Assembly: GCA_047631715.1 (NCBI GenBank)
Contig: JBLICC010000003.1
Coordinates: 1-34,499 of the forward strand
DNA from: Alteromonas naphthalenivorans
Lineage (GTDB): Bacteria; Babelota; Babeliae; Babelales; CAIQNR01
Reading direction: 5' to 3'
Length of the DNA: 34,499 bases
In this document: piece by piece, positions 4,301 to 33,204 of the stretch
How positions within the stretch are numbered: the first letter of the stretch is position 1
Layout of the letters: each line of letters begins with the position of its first letter
Program-made: the position numbers and the translations under genes
The notes under the pieces: model-generated
Seen by the model: only the letters and a program-made list of their open reading frames with translations
Told to the model about the DNA's origin: nothing
Databases searched by the model: none

Positions 4301-6463
4301 TTCTCGACGAACAACAAATCGATCGTATTCTATTCTAAAGCCTTGGCCATCAACTCGACCGCCATTAACTTTATCAATTATTCCTCGATCCATAAATACA
4401 TCAGATTCAAGGATTGCAACTGCGCCATCAAGCTTAAGTGTTGTTGTATTATTACTATCCTGATTACCTGAAAATTGCACACTATCGAGATACTTTCTGG
4501 TAATACCACCAAACTGAAAACTTTCTCTTCCGCGCAATCCTTTAAATACAAGATTTTTAAGTGTTAATGTTTTTCCGTTTGCAATACTAATACGACCACC
4601 ATCAGGAACGGTAAGTGTAAATCCGTTACCTTCTATAATGGTATCATCTTGAATATCAAGAAACGAGTTGAGTGTTACATTATTATTAAGCACAAGACGG
4701 ACCTTACCCAATGAGCCACCAGCACTCAAACTACCTGCATCAAAACGGTTAATTACAAGATTTTGACTTGCTGTTGGTAAAGCCGCACGTAGAATTGCCT
4801 CGTTTTCAGCTTCTGGAGACCACCGTGCTGAATGCACATCTGCCCCTCTATCCATAGCTTGGAAAGAACTTATACCGCTTTGCTTATTTTCCAAAACGTC
4901 ATCTTTTTGAAAGTTAAACAAACGCATGCCACTATCAGTAGAAACAGTAAAGAGAGAACCACTTGGATGCCAATTTAAATCATGAACCACAAACCCGGTT
5001 GGAGTTGTACCTTCTGAAGTAGTACCCGTTGTAATCAATGCAGTTCCATCTAAGTATCCATCAAAGTGTCTGTAAAAACGTATACTTGCAGAAGCCGATG
5101 CATCAGGAACTCCATCACCATCATTTGCCGTAAAAATATTATTAAAAATTACACCAATAATATCACCATGTGGATGAAATGCTGCCGCTGCAATATTACT
5201 CAAACCATCTTTTGTCTGAGTATTATAAATAGCGCCATCTGCATCAATTTCATAAACATGCAGTTCTCCATTTGATGCAAGAGTAATTTTTGAACCATCA
5301 GGAGACCAACTCAAAACATTGTTCATTGGTTTAGAAAGTGTAGGCATACTTATATCTGGAATAAATGCTTCTACCTCACGCTCAACCACACCTGTTTTAG
5401 AAACTTGGAATATCTTTAATTTATATACATAACCAACTTCACTATCAGCATTGCTTTGACCATACAATATCGCCAAGAAGTTTCCTTGGTATGACGTGGT
5501 ACCAGTCCAACTGCCATGTGGTCTAAATGCCAATGCATATACAGAAGCAGCTTCATGTACATCTTCTGTATTATTCCAACCAATACGTGTTGCAGTGTAT
5601 ACTAACCCGGTTGCTCCTGGCTCTTGTGCTAATGCTAATGTTGCAGCATCACCATTAGTAGGGAAATTGAGTGGTTTATATTGTAATAAGTTAACGTTTG
5701 TAGGAACCCCTTTAACAGTGCCGGCTGTATAATTTTGCCCAACAGCAATGAGGTAATTTCCTTCAGAAGTTTTTTGTGGTGCACAACTTATACAAGAAAC
5801 AGAGTTATCACCACCTGAAGCTATACTTCCTGTTGAATAAGCATCTCTATTTAATGCCCCTGTACCAGTAACAATTGCTTCAGTTGTTATGGTTCCAGCT
5901 CCACTTGGCTCATAGCTATATGCTTCTAATCGATCATTCTTTGCGGATGCTCCAGTATGGAGAGCCAACATATATTTACCATCATAAGTCCAAGCACATG
6001 CAGTTACCGTATGTACCATATCAGTTGTAACAACCGTTGAAGTATTAGTTATATCAATTGTTGCCCCTGCAGGAAACCCTGTAGTCCGTGGTGCAAAAAC
6101 AATACGGTTATCGTTTCCATAAATGGTACCAATGGTATCAAATTGCCCTGTACCACTAAAAATAAGATCGTTATGTATTTGAAGGTTTTGATCGTTTAGA
6201 GATATCGCACCTTCCATTGGAAAGAGAGAGTACCAGCCGAGAGTATTTTTAGTTGCATCACTAGTAGTATTCATATCAATGTTTCCGCCAATCATAGTGA
6301 ATGGCCGCACATTTGAAGTTGTTCCGGGGCTATTCCCCGTTGCACCAAGTGCACTTACCGTTGAAACAACATACGTGCTGTTGTCAGCAGGTAGAGCCGC
6401 GAAAATGATTGACTGGACACATAATAGAACGGAAAGTAGGGAAACATATTTTATGCTTCTCAT
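1385..6463 (-). CDS. Large secreted surface protein with two WD40-like beta-propeller plus beta-helix modules
   Basis: 1692 aa with N-terminal signal peptide and AGGAG RBS. Propeller blade motifs: CAWTYDG, AFRPHG, LSWSPDG, AFHPHG, LNWHPSG, ARWSPE, then VAWRPGG, APHPQE, IQWDERG. Duplicated beta-helix segments: DDTIIEGNG..ISIANGKTLTLKN and ENTILDGNG..LTIKSGKTLTITN. Confidence 0.85.
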   Translation of the reverse strand: MRSIKYVSLLSVLLCVQSIIFAALPADNSTYVVSTVSALGATGNSPGTTSNVRPFTMIGGNIDMNTTSDATKNTLGWYSLFPMEGAISLNDQNLQIHNDLIFSGTGQFDTIGTIYGNDNRIVFAPRTTGFPAGATIDITNTSTVVTTDMVHTVTACAWTYDGKYMLALHTGASAKNDRLEAYSYEPSGAGTITTEAIVTGTGALNRDAYSTGSIASGGDNSVSCISCAPQKTSEGNYLIAVGQNYTAGTVKGVPTNVNLLQYKPLNFPTNGDAATLALAQEPGATGLVYTATRIGWNNTEDVHEAASVYALAFRPHGSWTGTTSYQGNFLAILYGQSNADSEVGYVYKLKIFQVSKTGVVEREVEAFIPDISMPTLSKPMNNVLSWSPDGSKITLASNGELHVYEIDADGAIYNTQTKDGLSNIAAAAFHPHGDIIGVIFNNIFTANDGDGVPDASASASIRFYRHFDGYLDGTALITTGTTSEGTTPTGFVVHDLNWHPSGSLFTVSTDSGMRLFNFQKDDVLENKQSGISSFQAMDRGADVHSARWSPEAENEAILRAALPTASQNLVINRFDAGSLSAGGSLGKVRLVLNNNVTLNSFLDIQDDTIIEGNGFTLTVPDGGRISIANGKTLTLKNLVFKGLRGRESFQFGGITRKYLDSVQFSGNQDSNNTTTLKLDGAVAILESDVFMDRGIIDKVNGGRVDGQGFRIEYDRFVVRRETGGGGDAGAIIEDFAGNLLTLQANRSVRGHLKARQLALGGNTLTFLDAGEWPGGDSITLNNTQGRSGPLEGNAFAKTMNSVTLGDGNLVCYCNRGNGADGCTSIIRVDEFNTGATSTVWSSTQTEKVSQPITTASMRDGDVSQVAWRPGGFRLGSGANSSDKIYGVLVVAAGTQAKFTNSAIANLYDFTDKDTPTFAKVASNAGEFKATGIGASDTTLTATAAAWKNKNWAALALTDGVAGESGKDFIALYNVETNGTVKNNSASVTTNVVNIAVPSVRSAASGSLATTQLKWMAEDRGGQGSLESVRNLVWASSRAGGGEMGIVQVRQSGSQPPTITNAPSIQPLGNADAKIAPHPQETLVAVADGTTIQVYHVDSFTGQMFPIPMFIPMSGVTKINDIQWDERGEILIISTDEGCVLIKINPFGQYIENQYSGAFLSTQNCQTGLMLRDGISLFRDNSEGSVQNCVLATFQKPVNATVKNGTIKINGGMFMLKGSIDVLENTILDGNGQGSFFMFPDTKLTIKSGKTLTITNAYEFGGTFGIPDANGNGVLSNIVFEDSTAKIVLDGVALGTRMGPLYVNVGQWEATTPSGTTSTLEYKGFPVTFGPAVTNAPSVSAGTAAGGFGGGGGGPFTGAGNFGFDDFATEAGKTVAHSFSDRDSVQSVSGAAFNNFGNTEFSGKGFQDFGAFGEQMTMDFGSGDFSEMRYESGAINRIKADVRTSGTGRMVLGDGGRQNIAAGGHFVGGTAADDRYQHDMTGGSATVLESGSQWETGCQTSINWEDCKFDASSGSARFNSVDGAAAPNGKVETLTMDATTLAGNVQMFENSDGSKTTVNIKGINTAAEPTMQFATDDKMKLTKTNLVGSFTMAETVRKLSVDPANAYQNTCGDNCPAVYLNVPDANGAATDVVKQIKLTATEQVIQTYKDTGAGATKSESIALSKVTEVVIVDSSTGLQRRITTDANGAQVAV

Positions 6464-6516
6464 GCGAGTTCTCCTTTTTTAGGTGAGATTTATTTACGAA
6501 AAGACTTTACTTTAGC

Positions 6517-6570: not shown

Positions 6571-6699
6571 TGATCCCTCGATACTATTTTTCACTTACGT
6601 CAAAAAATCACTCGGGATGAACTAATAAATTATTTTTTTAAATAACCAAGTTAACTAGTTCATTTCGAGTGATTTCGTAGAAATTGTATCGAGAAATCA
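6571..6699. repeat. REP-like inverted palindrome pair, copy 1
   Basis: Left arm TGATCCCTCGATAC..CACTCGGGATGAACTA, AT-rich spacer, right arm TAGTTCATTTCGAGTG-ATTTCGTAGAAATT-GTATCGAGAAATCA. Lies just downstream of the ileS stop. Confidence 0.85.
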
Positions 6700-23799: not shown

Positions 23800-23980
23800 G
23801 AGTTAGGCCCCTAAATTTTATTTATCCCTATAAGGAATAAGCTTAAAATAAAGCGGCCTAGAAAATCAAGATTTGAATAGAAAAAAGTTTTCTCTATTTA
23901 TAACTTTAAGAACGCAACATACTTCGATACAACCACCTGTAGTGCCCACTCAGTATGACTTTGATTTGAATAAAAAAAAG

Positions 23981-25673: not shown

Positions 25674-28343
25674 ATGAATCAGTCCTCTTACTTACGAAGA
25701 TCTTTAGGTGTTTTTCTGACCCTTACAATGTTAATCAATACGCCTCTTTCTGCAGAAGCTCGTCCCACAAAAACAAGCGAAATCACACTTTCTCAGCTCC
25801 AAGACAGATCTATACTCGCTCTTAAACAAATGGATGTTTGTGCTGCAGTTATAGAAACAGCTGCCCAAAATGTAACAAATGGTGGCGCAAGTAATCTTGA
25901 TCAGAAGAAAAAAACTCAAGTACGCCTTCAGTTTCAATTACTTCGTAAAGAAATGAATCTTATTAAAGATGCTGCCGCAATTCATATTAATGAACAACAA
26001 CTTGTTGCTCTTACCTATTTAACTAACGAAGTTATCCGTGTATTAACTGCTGCAATCAACTCTGGTCTAGAAGTTGTTCCAGAACTTAATATCGAAATTC
26101 TTACAAAGAAATCAACAGAAAAACCAACTCTTGCACAAATTGATCGTATCTTAGTTCATAACGAAAAACGTCTGAAGGAACTTACAGATCTTTCAGAAAA
26201 AATCGGGTTAACGCAACTTAATAAGATGTATCGTGGCGCACGTAAGATGTATAGAAAATACTATGTATGGCCAATTGTAGAACATACACTTGTATATACT
26301 GCATTTATTCACTGGTCTGTATTTGTTACACCACGCTGGGCCGTAACAAACATGAAAAACGCAACCGACGATACTATTACACAATGGTTAGGTGAGTCTT
26401 TTGGTAGCATGCAAAAATGGATGGGTAAACCTCCTTCTAAAGCGCAACAAAATCACTCTCAAGTTCAATATCTTGTTGATGTAGATAAAAACGCTATCAG
26501 CTTTAAAGCTGCTCCTGAACTAAGAATTGATAATGCTCAAGTAAGAACAAAAAATACAAAGGGCGTGCTAGAAAAAATCTCTATGGAAGACCATATTAAT
26601 AACTTGGTTGACGAAGTAAGTATCTATCAAGATGAAAATGGAGAACTTGTAAAAAGATCTAAAGATGAAATCAAAATCATCAAAAAAGAACTTGAAGAAG
26701 CAATTTCCGATAATCTTCTTGCTATTGAAAATGCTCCAAAAGATGTTACTATCGACAAAACAAAAACAATTTCTGGTGCTGGTGGAGGATCTGTAAACTA
26801 CTGGACAGATCGTTTTGAAGGTATTGTGGATATGGATTGGAAATCAGCTCTTATTCAAATCCCTATCGCAAAATGGTTCCATAGCTACTTAGCAAAAGAT
26901 TATGACGTTGCTTCAAATTACCTTAGTAAAGTTACTAACAGAGTTGATGATCTTCTTTTTGGTATCACCAAAAAAAGTACCTACGAATCTCTAAGCATGC
27001 CCGAAGAATCTTTTGACGACATTGTTGGAAGAGAAGAAATTAAAGAAGAATTAAGCAAATTGATTGAGTACATCTGTTCACCAGATAAATTTGATCGTGC
27101 AGGCATTAAAGTTGAACGTGGCTATCTTTTTGCTGGTGACCCGCAAAATGGTAAGACATTTGCAGCAAAGGCTCTAACAAGAGAAATTAACGAAGCTATG
27201 AAAGCTACCGGCAGAAACGATAAAATGCGTTTATTCGAAATTAGCACCGATTCGTTAATCCAAAAAGGTATTGCCCATTGGATGGATCTTGCTCGTTACC
27301 ATGCACCATGCATCTTATTCTTAGACGAACTTGATCTTTTAAGATTGCAACGTGATGGCGATTCAAAACTATTGAGTGAGTTCTTAACCTGCATGAGTGG
27401 TACATTGAGTAAAGATGAAAAGTCTCATGTTATTATTCTTGCTGCAACCAACAAACCAGAAAACTTAGACTTTGCGCTTCGTCAACATGGTAGATTTGGT
27501 AAAATGTTCTGGTTCGATAAACCAACATTCAACAATCGTATTGCGTTCTTTAAAAAAGAATGTGAAAAACGTTGCATGAATACTGATCGTTTTGATTTTA
27601 ATGAATTAGCACAACAAACAGAAGGTTGCTCATTTGGTTCGCTTGATATTGTAATGAAAAAAACACTTATGCTAGCTAAGTTTGCTGGAACCTCTGTTAC
27701 TCAGCAACATTTCGAAAAAGCACTTGATAGCGAAATTAAAAAAATGATTCCTTGTGGGTATGATGTTCCTGCAGAAAAAGAACAAATTGTAGCTGTTCAC
27801 CAAGCTGGTAAAGCGATTATGAACATTATTCTTGAATCACAAAAGCAATTAAGTAAAGTAACAGTACTACCTATTACACAAGATCTACAAGAAGAACATG
27901 TAACACAGCAATACAACATTGCAGGGCTTCAGAGCAAAGACCAACGTGCTATTCGTCACGGCGGCATCTTCTCTTATCATTGGTCAGATTCACTTAATCT
28001 TGAGTCTCAAGATGAGTTAAAAAAACAATGTAAGATTTTGCTTGCAGGTAACGTTGCACAAACTGTGTTTGGTTTACCAAGTCCTTCTTACGACAAAGTA
28101 GACAAGCAAGAAGCATTTAAAATTGCAAAAGATATTGTGTTCGAAGGTCTTGATCAAAAAGATGTTGCTAAGGCAACTCGAGAAGACAAACTAACGCAAG
28201 CGTATCGTTTAGTTGAGCAATACGAACGCGAAATTGCAGTTGAACTTACAGAACAATTAACATGGCTTGTTAACACTACTACAGCGCTTCAAGATAGAAA
28301 GACTCTTTCTATTGGAGAACTTAACGAGTTACGCAGTAAGTAA
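25674..28343 (+). CDS. FtsH-like AAA+ ATPase with an inactivated M41 protease domain
   Basis: FDDIVG, Walker A GDPQNGKT, Walker B LFLDE, SRH ATNKPENLDFALRQHGRF, and M41-like VAVHQAGK (HEAGH lost) plus LLAG. About 440-aa N-terminal region with a signal or TM segment. Confidence 0.88.
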   Translation: MNQSSYLRRSLGVFLTLTMLINTPLSAEARPTKTSEITLSQLQDRSILALKQMDVCAAVIETAAQNVTNGGASNLDQKKKTQVRLQFQLLRKEMNLIKDAAAIHINEQQLVALTYLTNEVIRVLTAAINSGLEVVPELNIEILTKKSTEKPTLAQIDRILVHNEKRLKELTDLSEKIGLTQLNKMYRGARKMYRKYYVWPIVEHTLVYTAFIHWSVFVTPRWAVTNMKNATDDTITQWLGESFGSMQKWMGKPPSKAQQNHSQVQYLVDVDKNAISFKAAPELRIDNAQVRTKNTKGVLEKISMEDHINNLVDEVSIYQDENGELVKRSKDEIKIIKKELEEAISDNLLAIENAPKDVTIDKTKTISGAGGGSVNYWTDRFEGIVDMDWKSALIQIPIAKWFHSYLAKDYDVASNYLSKVTNRVDDLLFGITKKSTYESLSMPEESFDDIVGREEIKEELSKLIEYICSPDKFDRAGIKVERGYLFAGDPQNGKTFAAKALTREINEAMKATGRNDKMRLFEISTDSLIQKGIAHWMDLARYHAPCILFLDELDLLRLQRDGDSKLLSEFLTCMSGTLSKDEKSHVIILAATNKPENLDFALRQHGRFGKMFWFDKPTFNNRIAFFKKECEKRCMNTDRFDFNELAQQTEGCSFGSLDIVMKKTLMLAKFAGTSVTQQHFEKALDSEIKKMIPCGYDVPAEKEQIVAVHQAGKAIMNIILESQKQLSKVTVLPITQDLQEEHVTQQYNIAGLQSKDQRAIRHGGIFSYHWSDSLNLESQDELKKQCKILLAGNVAQTVFGLPSPSYDKVDKQEAFKIAKDIVFEGLDQKDVAKATREDKLTQAYRLVEQYEREIAVELTEQLTWLVNTTTALQDRKTLSIGELNELRSK

Positions 28344-28353
28344 CATACAAAAA

Positions 28354-28393
28354 TCATCCTGAGTGATTTCGTAGAAATCGTATCGCAGGATCA
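28354..28393 (+). repeat. Solo REP-like arm
   Basis: TCATCCTGAGTG-ATTTCGTAGAAATC-GTATCGCAGGATCA, 10 nt after the FtsH-like stop and abutting the terminator. Confidence 0.8.
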
Positions 28394-28432
28394 AAAAAAT
28401 AAGACCGGTTTAAACGCCGGTCTTATTTTTTT
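28393..28432. terminator. Bidirectional intrinsic terminator, copy A
   Basis: A7-TAAGACCGG-TTTAAACG-CCGGTCTTA-T7, between convergent genes. Confidence 0.85.
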
Positions 28433-28446
28433 AAACTATAACTATT

Positions 28447-30321
28447 TTATGCTGCAGATTCTGTGCTCTGATCTGCTTTCCATTTTTTAAATCTCTTTTC
28501 TTTTTCGTTTGCTTTCCATTTTTTAAATCTCTTTTCTTTTTCGTTTGCTTTCCATTTTTCAAATTTTTTATTTGTATTATTTGCATAGTCGCTATATGCA
28601 TTATCTTTTTTTTGTTCATAAGCGAATTTCTTTCTTTCACCTTTATAAGTCTGTACGTCTCTTATTAGATGTTGTTTATCATTTATATATTTCGTCTTAT
28701 TATCATACTTTTTTTTATCTTTTTGTACGTTTTCAAAATCCTCATAAACATACCTTGTAAACATAGGATCACGAGAAAAATGTTCTTTGTTAAATACACC
28801 TTCAGGATTAGTTCTTCCAATTTCATCACCATCGTCATCGATATATGGTGGATATGTTGTTTTTTGTTTAGCCAAACCTTCAAACAGTTTATCTCTAGCA
28901 CTCCAATCGTCATATCCCCCTACTTGAGTATGATCTTGTTCTGCATCATCTTTTTTAAAATTTGCCCTATCTATAACATTTTGTTTATTTGATTCTTTGT
29001 AAGCTTTTTGCGTCTTTTTATCAAAAAAACTACTCTGTCTGAGCCAATCTTTAAAGTTAATATCTAACTCTTCTTTTTCTTCTTTATTTATGTCTTCTCT
29101 TTGACCTTCTATTAATAGGTCATACTGGTTGTCTTCTTCCACAGAGTCAAAAGGCCTTGGTTGATCATAATCATCAGAATCCATCCTTTCATCATTGGTA
29201 AGGTCGAGATCATTTATCTTTTCCTTATATTTATATTTAATTTTTTGAATAGTTTTTTTATTCTCTTTTTCCCATTGTTTTCTAAATTTAGAATCTTTAT
29301 TATTTGCTTCCGAATCAATTGACTTAATTTTCGCATCTCGTTCTGTTCTACCTTTTTCTGCTTTAAGTCTTTTTTCATGAAGTTTTACAAAACTCTTGTC
29401 TTTACTAAGACCTTCTTCTTGTTCCTGTATTTTTTGTAGATTTTTACTCCAAGATTTCATTGAATTGTGTTTAAGTATTGTTTCGAGTTTTGCGTCAATT
29501 TTTTCTATTAATTTATATTTATAACCTGGATTAGATTTTTCTAATTTTTCCTTAATATCTGCTAATGATGAAAACTGATCGATTGCCTCTTCTTCTTTAT
29601 CTTTAGGTTTCTTAAGTTTATCTATTCTTGAAAAATCTATATTGTTAATTTTTGCTTCTTTTTCTTTCTTATTACTATCATACTCTTCGATGTCATCTGC
29701 AGAACGGCCATAAGCCCATTTTGCACGTGCCAGTTGAAGTTCACTATCAAGATTTTTAGGATCTTTATAATATTTATTATTTTTATCTTTAAACTTATTA
29801 TTTATATCTTGTTTAACTGATTCAGATTCATCTTCCCATAATTCAGTTATTTTATTTTGATCATTTTTATTAAATTTTCCCCAATGCCTAAGATGACTAT
29901 TTATCTCATCAGTAAGTGGGAGGTAATTAGGAAGAGAACGTTCATAATTAAAAGAATAATGTTCCGTATAATCTTTTTTGAAATTCACTAAATCAGAATC
30001 TTCTGCCTGCGTAGGTTTACCTGATCCTACCGATGTTATAACGCTAGATGCTCTCTCTTCACCTGGTGCTGTAACCGTATTAGCCGCTGCCGCTGCATCA
30101 AGGTCTTTTTCGCCTACGGTTTCTGCTGCAGATTGTTGCCTAAGAGTCATGTTTGCTTGTAACTGTTCTGCAGCTACAGAATCTACTGATGTAGTATCTG
30201 GATTTTCACCTGAAGATGGACCTAATTCTTGTTCTTCAGGTATCGGTTCCATTGTATCCATTCCAAAAATTGGCGTTACTAATATGCTGGTTAAAAACAA
30301 TAACAGTATTCTTTTCTTCAT
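28447..30321 (-). CDS. Secreted, highly charged (K/E/D-rich) helical orphan protein
   Basis: 624 aa with signal MKKRILLLFLTSILVTPIFG, AAGGA RBS, low GC and a C-terminal tandem repeat. Confidence 0.85.
   Translation of the reverse strand: MKKRILLLFLTSILVTPIFGMDTMEPIPEEQELGPSSGENPDTTSVDSVAAEQLQANMTLRQQSAAETVGEKDLDAAAAANTVTAPGEERASSVITSVGSGKPTQAEDSDLVNFKKDYTEHYSFNYERSLPNYLPLTDEINSHLRHWGKFNKNDQNKITELWEDESESVKQDINNKFKDKNNKYYKDPKNLDSELQLARAKWAYGRSADDIEEYDSNKKEKEAKINNIDFSRIDKLKKPKDKEEEAIDQFSSLADIKEKLEKSNPGYKYKLIEKIDAKLETILKHNSMKSWSKNLQKIQEQEEGLSKDKSFVKLHEKRLKAEKGRTERDAKIKSIDSEANNKDSKFRKQWEKENKKTIQKIKYKYKEKINDLDLTNDERMDSDDYDQPRPFDSVEEDNQYDLLIEGQREDINKEEKEELDINFKDWLRQSSFFDKKTQKAYKESNKQNVIDRANFKKDDAEQDHTQVGGYDDWSARDKLFEGLAKQKTTYPPYIDDDGDEIGRTNPEGVFNKEHFSRDPMFTRYVYEDFENVQKDKKKYDNKTKYINDKQHLIRDVQTYKGERKKFAYEQKKDNAYSDYANNTNKKFEKWKANEKEKRFKKWKANEKEKRFKKWKADQSTESAA
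28474..28564 (-). repeat. 36-bp coding tandem repeat, about 2.5 copies (KKWKANEKEKRF)
   Basis: TGCTTTCCATTTTTTAAATCTCTTTTCTTTTTCGTT is perfect at 28474 and 28510 and partial at 28546. Confidence 0.92.
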
Positions 30322-30441
30322 CTTTTCTTCCTTTTAAGCTTGCGTACTCTTTAAACTAATAGAACTATTAGAATAACAAATCGGAAGATCAGAAATAAAG
30401 AGTTTTCTTTCAAAACTAGCAATCTAAGCTTATTTTGCTCT

Positions 30442-30497
30442 TTAAACTTTCAAAAATAAGACCGGTTTTAACGCCGGTCTTATTTTTGAAAGTTTAA
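30442..30497. terminator. Intrinsic terminator, copy B (24-bp perfect stem), downstream of rpiB
   Basis: TTAAACTTTCAAAAATAAGACCGG-TTTTAACG-CCGGTCTTATTTTTGAAAGTTTAA. Confidence 0.85.
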
Positions 30498-30513
30498 TTA
30501 TTAGAAGCTTATA

Positions 30514-30942
30514 TTAGCCATCAATCATGGTAAGTCGTTCTTGATACCTACCGCCTAAAAATTTTGCCTTGTACCAGACTCTTATCATGGCAAGTGCATC
30601 ATCTAAAGAAATGTAACTTGTAGGGAGTACTAAAATATTTGCATTGTCGTGCTCTTTGCTTAGTTTTGCAATCTCTATATTCCACGCAAGGGCAGCATAT
30701 ACACCCTTAAATCTATTTGCTGCAATAGACATGCCTACACCAGATCCACACAAAAGAACTCCTCCATCAACTTTTTTGTCTTGAACTTTCTTGGCAACTT
30801 CTTGTGCATACAATGGAAAGTCACAATTATTGGCGCTTTCGCACCCTACATCAACCCATACAATCGAATCTATATGCATCGACTGTATTAAATGATTTTT
30901 GAGTTCAAACCCACGATGGTCGGTTCCAATTGCAATCTTCAT
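30514..30942 (-). CDS. rpiB: Ribose-5-phosphate isomerase B (RpiB/LacA/LacB family)
   Basis: Motifs MKIAIGTDHRG, LCGSGVGMSIAANRFKGV, EHDNANIL and F.GGRY..R. Confidence 0.94.
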   Translation of the reverse strand: MKIAIGTDHRGFELKNHLIQSMHIDSIVWVDVGCESANNCDFPLYAQEVAKKVQDKKVDGGVLLCGSGVGMSIAANRFKGVYAALAWNIEIAKLSKEHDNANILVLPTSYISLDDALAMIRVWYKAKFLGGRYQERLTMIDG

Positions 30943-31682
30943 GATTTCCCCTTTTTCTTTTTATTACGAAGAACGGAAGAATGTTTTTTTATTTTTTTGG
31001 GAGCTATTTTTTGTTTATCTACAGATGGAGCGCGATGTTTTACAGTAGAAACATTACCCAAAGTATCTACATTCCATTGGGCAGAAGAAAAGTGCTCAGG
31101 ACTACTGAAATAGAGCTTCATCTTATGCGCATGGCCCTCTTGCAGAATATCTGCGCCATTACTATTAGTGCGTTCAAAACGAACTTCGTAAGGTGTTTTA
31201 TGATTATTAAAGAGTGTTCCAAACATTGTTTTATATTCTACAGCAAGCTCAATAGATTTAACTTCAAACGGCATGTAACGCTTATCATCAACTTCGAGAT
31301 GCATTGCCCATGGCACCGGTTTAACAGACAGTGGATTGTCGTGCGTACTCAATACATAAAACGAAATATAATGTTTATTTTCTTTGAGCTGTCTACGTAC
31401 AAACGCATGGCGCACATCGGTATTTTTCCCACGCATATCAGCATTTATATCTGAATACACCGTACGCATTTCATCAGAAAGCCACAATGCGTCAAACAAA
31501 CCTAGCGTATTAAAATTATCATAAATATTAACCTCTTTTACATACTGCTTAATTTTCTTTTGATAATTTTTATATTCTTTACCTTGTGGAAAGTTTTCTT
31601 TTGCCGTATCAATTATAGTTCCTCCGCACCCAGGGAGCAAAAAAAGCGCAACTAACATGGATAGATTGATTATTCGGTTCAT
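30939..31682 (-). CDS. Lipoprotein, hypothetical
   Basis: Lipobox LPG-C after a hydrophobic stretch, GAGG RBS, Lys-rich tail and an ATGA overlap with rpiB. Confidence 0.85.
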   Translation of the reverse strand: MNRIINLSMLVALFLLPGCGGTIIDTAKENFPQGKEYKNYQKKIKQYVKEVNIYDNFNTLGLFDALWLSDEMRTVYSDINADMRGKNTDVRHAFVRRQLKENKHYISFYVLSTHDNPLSVKPVPWAMHLEVDDKRYMPFEVKSIELAVEYKTMFGTLFNNHKTPYEVRFERTNSNGADILQEGHAHKMKLYFSSPEHFSSAQWNVDTLGNVSTVKHRAPSVDKQKIAPKKIKKHSSVLRNKKKKGKS

Positions 31683-31768: not shown

Positions 31769-32986
31769 ATGAGTTTATCAATAGCAACATTTTTAGCATG
31801 GCGTTATGCCAAGCAAGCAATACGCCAATCAACGCTACAGACAATGCTATGGATCTGTTTTGGTAGTATTTTTGTAGGAACTTTTTCTCTTGCACTTATT
31901 GTTTCTATCATGAGCGGATTTGAATCAGAAACACAAAAAAAACTACAAGGTATTTATCCAGACATTATTATTGAATCACCTACAGGCACTTTTTTAGATG
32001 CTCCACCACTTATTAAACATCTTAAAAAAAACTTTTCAACCATTGCCCATACCTGTACGTATAGCTCGCAGCAAGTACTTATACAAGCACCACACACACA
32101 AGAGCCTACCATTGTTGGCATACTCAAAGGCATTACCCCAGAAGAAGAACGGGTTACCAATCTGCATACCAAATATCAGTTGGCTCCCAATGTACAACTT
32201 AAAGGTCCTCATGTTATTATTGGCAAAACAATTGCAGAAACACTCAATAAAGAAGTTGGCGAGACTATAACTTTGCTCTATAGCGCGAACCCTCATGCAC
32301 AACTGAATAACATACGTTTTTCTTCTCTAGAAGTAACAATTGCAGGTCTCATAAGCACTGGTATGACAGAATACGACAACGCTCTTGTGATCGCTCATCA
32401 AGGATTTGTTACATCACTCTTTGAAGAAGAATGCATTAATCAAGTAGGCGTTAAACTTACTAACCCAATCCAAGCACAACACATAGCAAAACAATGCGCT
32501 ACAATACCCGAGTTACATGCTTATCGATGGCAAGACTTATACCCATCGCTGGTTTCTGCTCTTAAATTAGAAAAATATGCCATGTTCTTTATTTTGGGAT
32601 TAATTGTACTGGTTGCAAGCATGAACAATATTTCTCTTTTATTTATGTTTATTACTGCAAAACGTAAAGAAATTGCCCTTCTAAAAATGCTCGGTATGAA
32701 CACGCGCACCGTTATGCTTATCTTTTTATTCTTTAATCTTTTTATTACGTGCATAGCAACACTGTTTGGACTTGCATGCGCCTACGGTGTAGGAAGGCTT
32801 TTACAACGCTATCCATTTATCGAACTCCCTGATGTTTATTATATTTCTCATTTGCCTGTACATCTTGACCCGTATATGTTTTTAACCATTTTTATACTTG
32901 TACTTGTATTGGGAATACTTTCTGCCTTACTACCCCTCTTTTCTATTAAAAAAATTAACATCACCCAAACCCTACGCTTTGAATAA
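31769..32986 (+). CDS. LolC/E-family (FtsX-like) lipoprotein-releasing ABC permease
   Basis: Motifs AWRY, TM1..SIMSGF, periplasmic domain, WQD..L.SAL.LEK, VASMN..S.L.M.I..KRKEIALLK.LG, YYISHLP and C-terminal LRFE. Confidence 0.9.
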   Translation: MSLSIATFLAWRYAKQAIRQSTLQTMLWICFGSIFVGTFSLALIVSIMSGFESETQKKLQGIYPDIIIESPTGTFLDAPPLIKHLKKNFSTIAHTCTYSSQQVLIQAPHTQEPTIVGILKGITPEEERVTNLHTKYQLAPNVQLKGPHVIIGKTIAETLNKEVGETITLLYSANPHAQLNNIRFSSLEVTIAGLISTGMTEYDNALVIAHQGFVTSLFEEECINQVGVKLTNPIQAQHIAKQCATIPELHAYRWQDLYPSLVSALKLEKYAMFFILGLIVLVASMNNISLLFMFITAKRKEIALLKMLGMNTRTVMLIFLFFNLFITCIATLFGLACAYGVGRLLQRYPFIELPDVYYISHLPVHLDPYMFLTIFILVLVLGILSALLPLFSIKKINITQTLRFE

Positions 32987-32987
32987 G

Positions 32988-33110
32988 GTGTCTCTCGATA
33001 CAACCGCCTTTGGCGCCCACTCGAGATGAACTTTATTCTTTGTTATTATAAAAATCGTAAATTAATCGGTTCATCCCGAGTGGTTTCGTAGAAATTGTAT
33101 CGAGGGACTC
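32988..33110. repeat. REP-like inverted palindrome pair, copy 3
   Basis: GTGTCTCTCGATAC-AACCGCCTTTGGCGCC-CACTCGAGATGAAC ... GTTCATCCCGAGTG-GTTTCGTAGAAATT-GTATCGAGGGAC. Begins 1 nt after the permease stop. Confidence 0.88.
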
Positions 33111-33204
33111 ATTGCTGTATTTAAAAACCCTATGCTTTGAATAATGCCAATGTTGTGTAAACTACGTAAAAAAGTAGCAACTCAGAAGCACAGAGGTAGT
33201 ACTT

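Follow-up and report, generated by a model that had tools for sequence, protein, structure and literature searches.

A secreted-type orphan gene between directly repeated terminator-like hairpins in a Babelales genome: a candidate case of gene relocation by duplication and loss

The FtsH-like/rpiB locus and its repeated hairpin

The DNA analysed here, called the window, is the whole 34,499-nt contig JBLICC010000003.1 (contig C3 in our numbering) of assembly GCA_047631715.1, which is listed as Alteromonas naphthalenivorans and placed by GTDB in the Babelales. The genome (G000; 845 kb, 90% complete) is that of a protist-parasite bacterium. At the place where a gene for an FtsH-like AAA protease and rpiB converge, a single orphan gene of 624 codons stands between two directly repeated terminator-like hairpins (Table 1). 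We propose, with a probability of about 0.65, that a local tandem duplication of a block of about 10 kb, followed by deletions in both copies in the manner of the SNAP model of gene-order change, moved this gene and left the twin terminators behind. The proposal is built on four observations, namely the anatomy of the repeat, an empty site in the only other available genome of the genus (G001; median protein identity to G000 77% over 568 orthologs), a promoter in G001 that matches the promoter of the orphan, and the loss of this promoter from the corresponding place in G000.

A duplicated hairpin enclosing the orphan had been noticed in a preliminary description made from the letters alone, and our analysis confirmed it: the 36-nt copies at 28395-28430 and 30452-30487 were identical at 35 of 36 positions, had the same orientation and carried the same asymmetric 8-nt loop. 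The two copies stood as described, but their extent did not, as the similarity reached past the 36-nt core on the rpiB side (50 of 59 columns in total, 15/23 outside the core) and the perfect arms were longer in the right hairpin (24 bp) than in the left one (16 bp). On the FtsH side the similarity ended at once (3/15). Because the similarity is one-sided toward rpiB, the repeated unit is the 3' untranslated region (UTR) of rpiB plus its terminator, and the stop codon of the orphan lies inside the left copy. The copies have drifted, and the longest perfect match between them is 18 nt.

Both hairpins are made of an A-tract, a GC stem, the 8-nt loop and a T-tract, and both fold strongly (z -6.7 to -11.7). 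Given the 67 terminator-like hairpins found, we roughly estimate the probability that such a pair arises by chance at about 3e-8. With a GC stem and a T-tract on both strands, between gene ends, they have the shape of a bidirectional intrinsic terminator, and from this shape and position they probably terminate transcription. A consensus scan scored only the right hairpin as terminator-like and found 7 promoter signals against 8.7 expected, which is no excess. All Rfam matches of the hairpin were sub-threshold, and its pattern had no match among viral contigs.

The hairpin is not a common genome-wide repeat. The pattern matched 4 of 41 genomes, with 3 copies in G000 and one in G001. The third G000 copy (C8:188-223, 30/36, same loop) belongs to another gene junction, of which it is the old terminator; at that junction a related hairpin is present in G001, and the flank upstream of it is the same. 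When compared with five relatives (G001, G011, G012, G013 and G015), the loop is reversed in both copies of the window, so that either the loop was flipped before the duplication or the copies were made alike afterwards. The loop TTT(A/T)AACG was also seen in five G000 hairpins with differing stems (C2:25473, C2:41200, C8:179, and 28393 and 30442 of the window) and once in G001 (C1:486819); it may mark an old terminator family or be a stable loop.

The insert consists of one real-looking open reading frame (ORF) and its 130-nt upstream region. No Pfam family was matched in it, hence it holds no recombinase or restriction-modification gene. Searches for homologs of the orphan returned the orphan itself or nothing, with no usable Atlas match, and a first metagenome scan found no relative. 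The tandem repeat at its C-terminus is recent and encodes a 12-residue unit rich in K and W. Of the two flanking genes, the FtsH-like one was matched in all 15 other genomes of the family.

Table 1 Features of the FtsH-like/rpiB junction (positions in the window)
Feature	Position	Strand	Remarks
FtsH-like AAA protease gene, 889 aa	25674..28343	+	PF00004 E 6e-20, weak PF01434; left flank, converges on the left hairpin
REP-like palindromic unit	28353..28393	+	41 nt, folds alone (z -2.55); not in the G001 gap
Left terminator-like hairpin	28393..28432	.	16-bp arms and an 8-nt loop between an A-tract and a T-tract; probable terminator of both the FtsH-like gene and the orphan
Left direct-repeat copy	28395..28453	+	Terminator and drifted copy of the rpiB 3' UTR; 50/59 columns vs 30452-30509; holds the orphan stop codon
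Orphan ORF, 624 aa	28447..30321	-	Signal-peptide-like N-terminus, K/E/D-rich; no Pfam match
Tandem repeat of 36 nt, ~2.5 units, orphan C-terminus	28474..28581	-	Family D4
Orphan promoter region and 5' coding part	30244..30452	-	Match to G001 gene C2:153423-154562; begins at the hairpin T-tract
Right terminator-like hairpin	30442..30497	.	Perfect arms of 24 bp; probable working terminator of rpiB
Right direct-repeat copy	30452..30509	+	Terminator and rpiB 3' UTR
rpiB, 142 aa	30514..30942	-	PF02502 E 5e-46; right flank
Gene for a 247-aa family-conserved protein, upstream of rpiB	30939..31682	-	Synteny anchor; 16/16 family genomes

The empty site and the promoter in relatives

The search for an empty site in a related genome was successful. 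In G001, the FtsH-like gene and rpiB converge across a gap of 162 nt that holds one homologous hairpin with the same stem, and this is the sole copy of the pattern in that genome. The single hairpin at this site therefore indicates that the orphan was added at the junction in G000 together with a duplication of the terminator. We examined 147 records and obtained 52 distinct loci, some of them from close kin, in which both genes are convergent; 29 had a gap shorter than 300 nt and 23 were filled (the window included). The FtsH-like/rpiB junction is thus a turnover spot that takes up new genes often. Different cargo was found in relatives, but none of the 22 other filled loci was bounded by a duplication (end-to-end score at most 24 with shuffle maxima of 19-31, compared with 72 for the window), although old repeats could have decayed. 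The insert of G006 has two similar hairpins around it; its score of 24 is within the shuffle range and it was not counted. The junction of G023 (L039) has two tandem FtsH-like genes before rpiB, and four genomes of genus g8 (G013, G008, G011 and G014; L098-L101) have no rpiB at the junction.

The promoter and first 150 coding nucleotides of the orphan were compared with 1697 upstream regions from both genomes, and the best match was that of the G001 gene at C2:153423-154562 (score 37, next 31; mean 12.8, standard deviation 2.4). In the reciprocal comparison, the promoter of this proposed donor alone placed the orphan first among 811 genes (31, next 19). With blastn, the promoter regions and 5' coding parts of the two genes were 62% identical over 223 columns (E 3.6e-9), starting from 30452, and this was the best hit in G000. 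The donor is the first gene of a three-gene predicted secreted cluster that lies 9840 nt from the G001 hairpin, on the strand of rpiB and upstream of it, and this location matches the strand and the side that a duplication model requires. At the syntenic donor spot in G000 (C37:2768), the upstream gene is intact and the promoter is missing; two truncated REP-like fragments run there into a 290-aa ORF without a signal peptide.

The validity of the promoter comparison was assessed on 67 genes without a G001 protein match, for which the top promoter match was syntenic in 12, near in 5 and far in 50; the 12 syntenic cases show that the comparison does detect true positional counterparts. The five near matches were four genes at contig ends and the orphan. 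Fast-evolving orthologs (n = 23) had promoter scores of 9-100, with a median of 29.

A common upstream layout, in which a TAAGCT box is followed by CTCTT and then by TTG(C/T)TAT(C/T)CT, was seen before several lineage-specific secreted-type genes of both genomes: at 30322-30451 of the window, at C17:360-480, C6:22530-22680 and C35:3860-3990 in G000, and at C2:154555-154720, C3:62500-62660 and C4:9740-9920 in G001. It is possibly a promoter class or a regulon. Many G000 genes without a G001 protein match keep the syntenic promoter and a signal-peptide start in front of an unrecognisable body (for example C10:5863, C25:2724, C9:9266, C14:12072 and C20:5444), a pattern that points to very fast turnover of gene bodies behind stable promoters. 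Two further candidates were set aside. A likeness of the orphan to the secreted arrays of C6 and C10, seen by eye, was weak on shuffling (best z 3.9 and 3.6; 200 shuffles). The outer arm of the right hairpin shows microhomology to the end of the gene that precedes the donor promoter, but this was not relied on, as the arm may simply mirror the rpiB UTR.

Similar duplications elsewhere in the two genomes

We compared terminators lying less than 8 kb apart in G000, using the 99th percentile of distant pairs as the threshold, and 6 of 39 pairs were above it (0.39 expected), all of them direct. Two of the six were plain paralog arrays (C21 and C6). An HPF-like gene at C2:9.7-13.5 kb has been duplicated and both of its copies are kept (58/111 identical), with a second terminator between them, in the order GTPase gene, terminator, second HPF-like copy, terminator, two orphans, HPF-like gene. 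This is the order that a duplication plus one deletion of the G001 order would give with both copies kept; the HPF-like pair scores slightly below the pair threshold. At C1:19.3-20.3 kb, the gene that lies beyond an FKBP-like gene in G001 sits before it in G000, between repeats identical at 52 of 52 positions. Four conserved genes of G001 lie between two terminator copies that are 6.7 kb apart, and therefore a cargo cassette cannot explain that pair. Other inserts, in both genomes, are bracketed by the 3' or 5' ends of neighbouring genes without a terminator.

These results bear on the preliminary description, which had read the locus as gene capture at a terminator hairpin with duplication of the target. 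The addition of a gene and the duplication of the terminator stood. Capture aimed at the hairpin was not supported, because gene 5' ends and 3' ends, and not only terminators, are duplicated around inserts in both genomes, and because the apparent source of the promoter is a locus at a distance of about 10 kb.

Three more bracketed loci were recorded. At C11:17515-18730 of G000, the 3' end of a tRNA-Met gene and a terminator are duplicated (39/41) around a 363-aa orphan, and G001 has one copy with a different gene behind it; this case looks like a classical islet. At one and the same junction, C46:1153-2440 in G000 and C1:516506-517482 in G001, direct repeats of a terminator and the 3' end of a convergent gene surround different genes. 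The four-way comparison of these repeats (59/70 within G000, 62/74 across the genomes, 62/69 within G001) is compatible with independent events and with conversion alike. At C8:3713-3924 and 6295-6504 of G000, a 212-nt direct repeat (95%) made of a short conserved ORF and a terminator surrounds three genes; it is single in G001.

The preliminary description had also singled out a solo arm of a repetitive extragenic palindromic (REP) element next to the left hairpin. Its position proved unremarkable: the unit is 41 nt long, folds by itself and belongs to a family that has 31 blastn matches in G000 and 2 in G001, and the core of this family lies at most 110 nt from 12 of the 67 terminators. Further units were seen at 6605-6693, 10992-11122, 23924-23966 and 32982-33112 of the window, some as inverted pairs, and a longer variant with an inner hairpin had 8 blastn matches in G000 and 0 in G001.

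Proposed history, alternatives and known systems

In the history that we propose, the ancestor would have resembled G001 and would have carried, along the strand of rpiB, the gene at C2:154697, the promoter with its small predicted secreted cluster, housekeeping genes (pgk, an FtsX/MacB-type permease gene and the 247-aa gene), rpiB, its UTR, the terminator and the convergent FtsH-like gene. A block of about 9.8 kb, from the promoter to the end of the rpiB terminator, would have been duplicated head to tail, which would place the promoter directly behind a terminator. The second copy would then have lost everything from the interior of the cluster up to the rpiB UTR and kept the promoter, one gene body, a UTR and the terminator, and the first copy would have lost the promoter and the start of the cluster, giving the order now seen. 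The 59-column direct repeat, which is single in G001, would be the remnant of a direct tandem duplication, and the missing promoter at C37:2768, with truncated repeats and a headless ORF in its place, would be the matching loss from the other copy. All that this first copy would have lost is the promoter of a secreted gene. The order of these steps is our reconstruction, and it takes the promoter match as a sign of descent. At present, the hairpins would act as ordinary terminators that insulate the moved gene.

Several results weigh against this history. About one near promoter match among the 51 non-syntenic genes is expected by chance, and therefore the argument rests on the gene having been fixed beforehand, on strand and side, on the reciprocal match and on a donor site that is empty. 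The promoter is one of a small family: used alone, it gives the donor a score of 30, tied with a G000 promoter on C17, and distant top matches reach 34-40 in four other genes. The protein does not follow its promoter clearly, as the orphan had z 3.0 (3/500 shuffles) against the proposed donor and z 3.5 against the neighbour of the donor, phmmer of the orphan gave nothing significant in G001, and its first 50 residues ranked the donor 7th of 1699. The headless ORF on C37 was weakly similar to the G001 cluster (z 2.6-2.8) and had z -0.6 against the orphan, and similarity searches found no remnant of a deleted housekeeping gene in or around the insert. The adjacency of C3 and C37 spans a contig break and is taken from G001, both ends matching G001 intergenic sequence. 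In the genome-wide comparisons, only 2 of 54 near terminator pairs of G001 were above the threshold (0.54 expected), and about half of 18 other bracketed genes tested had no local source.

The last point leads to insertion accompanied by duplication of a long stretch of target, in which DNA from elsewhere (a secreted-family locus, or another strain by transformation) was patched in near the hairpin and a target of about 59 bp was copied on both sides without a dedicated enzyme, the promoter match then being family likeness only. We consider this unlikely, though it has several facts on its side: a target that is single in the empty allele, a duplication longer than 30 bp and no mobility gene, as in the cases outlined by Furuta et al. 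(2010; PMC2853133), a genome with RecA and a ComEC-family gene, and several bracketed genes without a local source, such as those at tRNA-Met (C11) and on C27. The orphan is also GC-poor (30.8%, compared with 36.2% for conserved genes), and its N-terminal 115 aa have weak phmmer matches to two C10 genes (E 4e-4 and 3e-3). However, the low GC fits a protein rich in K, E, D and N and differs little from the value for other non-conserved genes (34.1 +/- 2.9%), no homolog was found outside the genome, and insertion leaves unexplained why the best promoter match lies 9.8 kb off on the needed strand and why the promoter is missing at its own site. Conversion between the hairpins in an old duplication would alter the age of the event and not its origin, and could be combined with any other reading. 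The reversed loop of both copies and a core that is far better kept (35/36) than the flank (15/23) would agree with it, but a loop flip before duplication, together with selection on the terminator, gives the same picture, and we regard conversion as rather improbable.

The preliminary description had concluded on an excisable cassette, which would require a terminator-targeted recombinase acting in trans with the hairpin as its attachment site. The direct repeats, the common loop orientation, the empty site in G001, the many relatives with different genes at the junction and the rpsT-like/C46 junction, where repeats surround different genes in both genomes, are what such a cassette would give. 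As had been noted, no recombinase is present in the insert, and the two tyrosine recombinase genes of the genome (PF00589) lie outside it, are common to G000 and G001 and are likely XerC and XerD. No match to PF00239 (serine recombinases) or PF01797 (Y1) was found in G000 at its 90% completeness, and a role for GIY-YIG was dropped since PF01541 is in G001 and not in G000. The other filled loci do not have duplicated ends, and the duplicated stretches of these genomes have no common sequence and include gene 5' ends. Among the contigs of four sequencing runs we found no excision joint or circle joint, although contigs drop rare variants and rare circles could be missed in this way; the contigs end at the hairpins, and on one side their overlap with the two junctions is 29 letters, which is below our bridging bar of 31. 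Parts of the orphan are covered in run X2, which comes from another study, and X3 and X4 held small shares and were left out. In run X1, the upstream region of the orphan was present, in a diverged form, in a minor variant (depth 3.7) as well, and this counts against the cassette. The depth of X1 was seen to fall from about 12 to about 8.3 over 27071-30445 of the window, with low-depth diverged contigs, as if the FtsH 3' half and the insert had another allele in a second strain. Efficient RecA recombination is usually quoted as needing about 25 bp. The longest perfect match of 18 nt is shorter than this, and therefore at most a rare deletion is expected; the repeats could allow such a one-way loss of 2057 bp, which would leave a gap of 113 nt. 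Nothing points to programmed excision, and we judge the cassette very unlikely. Still less credible is the footprint of a hairpin-inserting transposase (IS1182-like) that copied the hairpin whole and was later replaced, or that carried the orphan non-autonomously. As this would predict, it is precisely the hairpin that is best kept within the repeat, but no match to PF13751, PF05598 or PF01609 (DDE) was found in G000 (at its 90% completeness) or G001, no terminal inverted repeats were seen inside the hairpins, and the extension of the repeat, of about 23 nt, is confined to one side.

With relocation by duplication and loss, the twin terminators around the orphan can be explained without a new mobile system, and a simple test for comparable loci is to look for the promoter of the orphan gene nearby in a relative. 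It also suggests a route by which a small parasite genome without a detected transposase turns over its secreted genes. A signal-peptide-like start (crude pattern) was found in 124 of 165 G000 genes without a G001 match, and in a cultured relative putative signal peptides are reported for 44% of genes, with many secreted-type ORFans (PMC6561590). A wider idea, which we put forward only as a doubtful possibility, is that lineage-specific secreted genes of the Babeliales hop over short distances by repeated small duplications and deletions that end at terminator hairpins and REP-like repeats. If this is true, terminator-anchored shuffling without a recombinase would give moved genes their own promoter and terminator and drive the turnover of the secreted repertoire, and each of these genomes would preserve several completed SNAP-type events, as a natural archive. 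In literature listings of incomplete coverage, we found no description of duplicated terminators as relocation scars or of gene-order change in Dependentiae.

Among known systems, bidirectional intrinsic (rho-independent) terminators share with these hairpins the A-tract, the GC-rich stem and the T-tract between convergent genes; what is unusual here is the duplication alone. In integrative elements and genomic islets, a tRNA or other gene has its 3' end duplicated. The direct repeats of a transcript 3' end are alike, and so is the tRNA-Met case of C11, but the repeat here has no coding or tRNA sequence, the insert has no integrase, and the inserts of relatives have no repeats. Insertion that duplicates a long target, as outlined in PMC2853133, is alike in an insert below 20 kb, a target longer than 30 bp that is single in the empty allele, the lack of a mobility gene and a competence gene in the organism; it differs in that the inserts reported there consist of restriction-modification genes and were compared between strains, whereas here a secreted-type orphan with a seemingly local promoter is compared between species. 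The SNAP model (Brandis and Hughes 2020; PMC7055797) has experimental support (Cao et al. 2022; PMC9016547), and the abstract of the paper on the model calls for more bioinformatic testing of the process in genomes. Our block of about 10 kb is at the low end of the range given there (tens of kb to more than 1 Mb; PMC7055797), no repeats were shown at the inferred duplication ends, and the case is read from two genomes and not observed. Like SNAP, it would have a segmental tandem duplication, then the loss of different genes from each copy, and a changed gene order. If the reconstruction holds, the locus would show, in nature and on a small scale, how duplication and loss change gene order, and the same logic is found in the tandem duplication-random loss of mitochondrial genomes.

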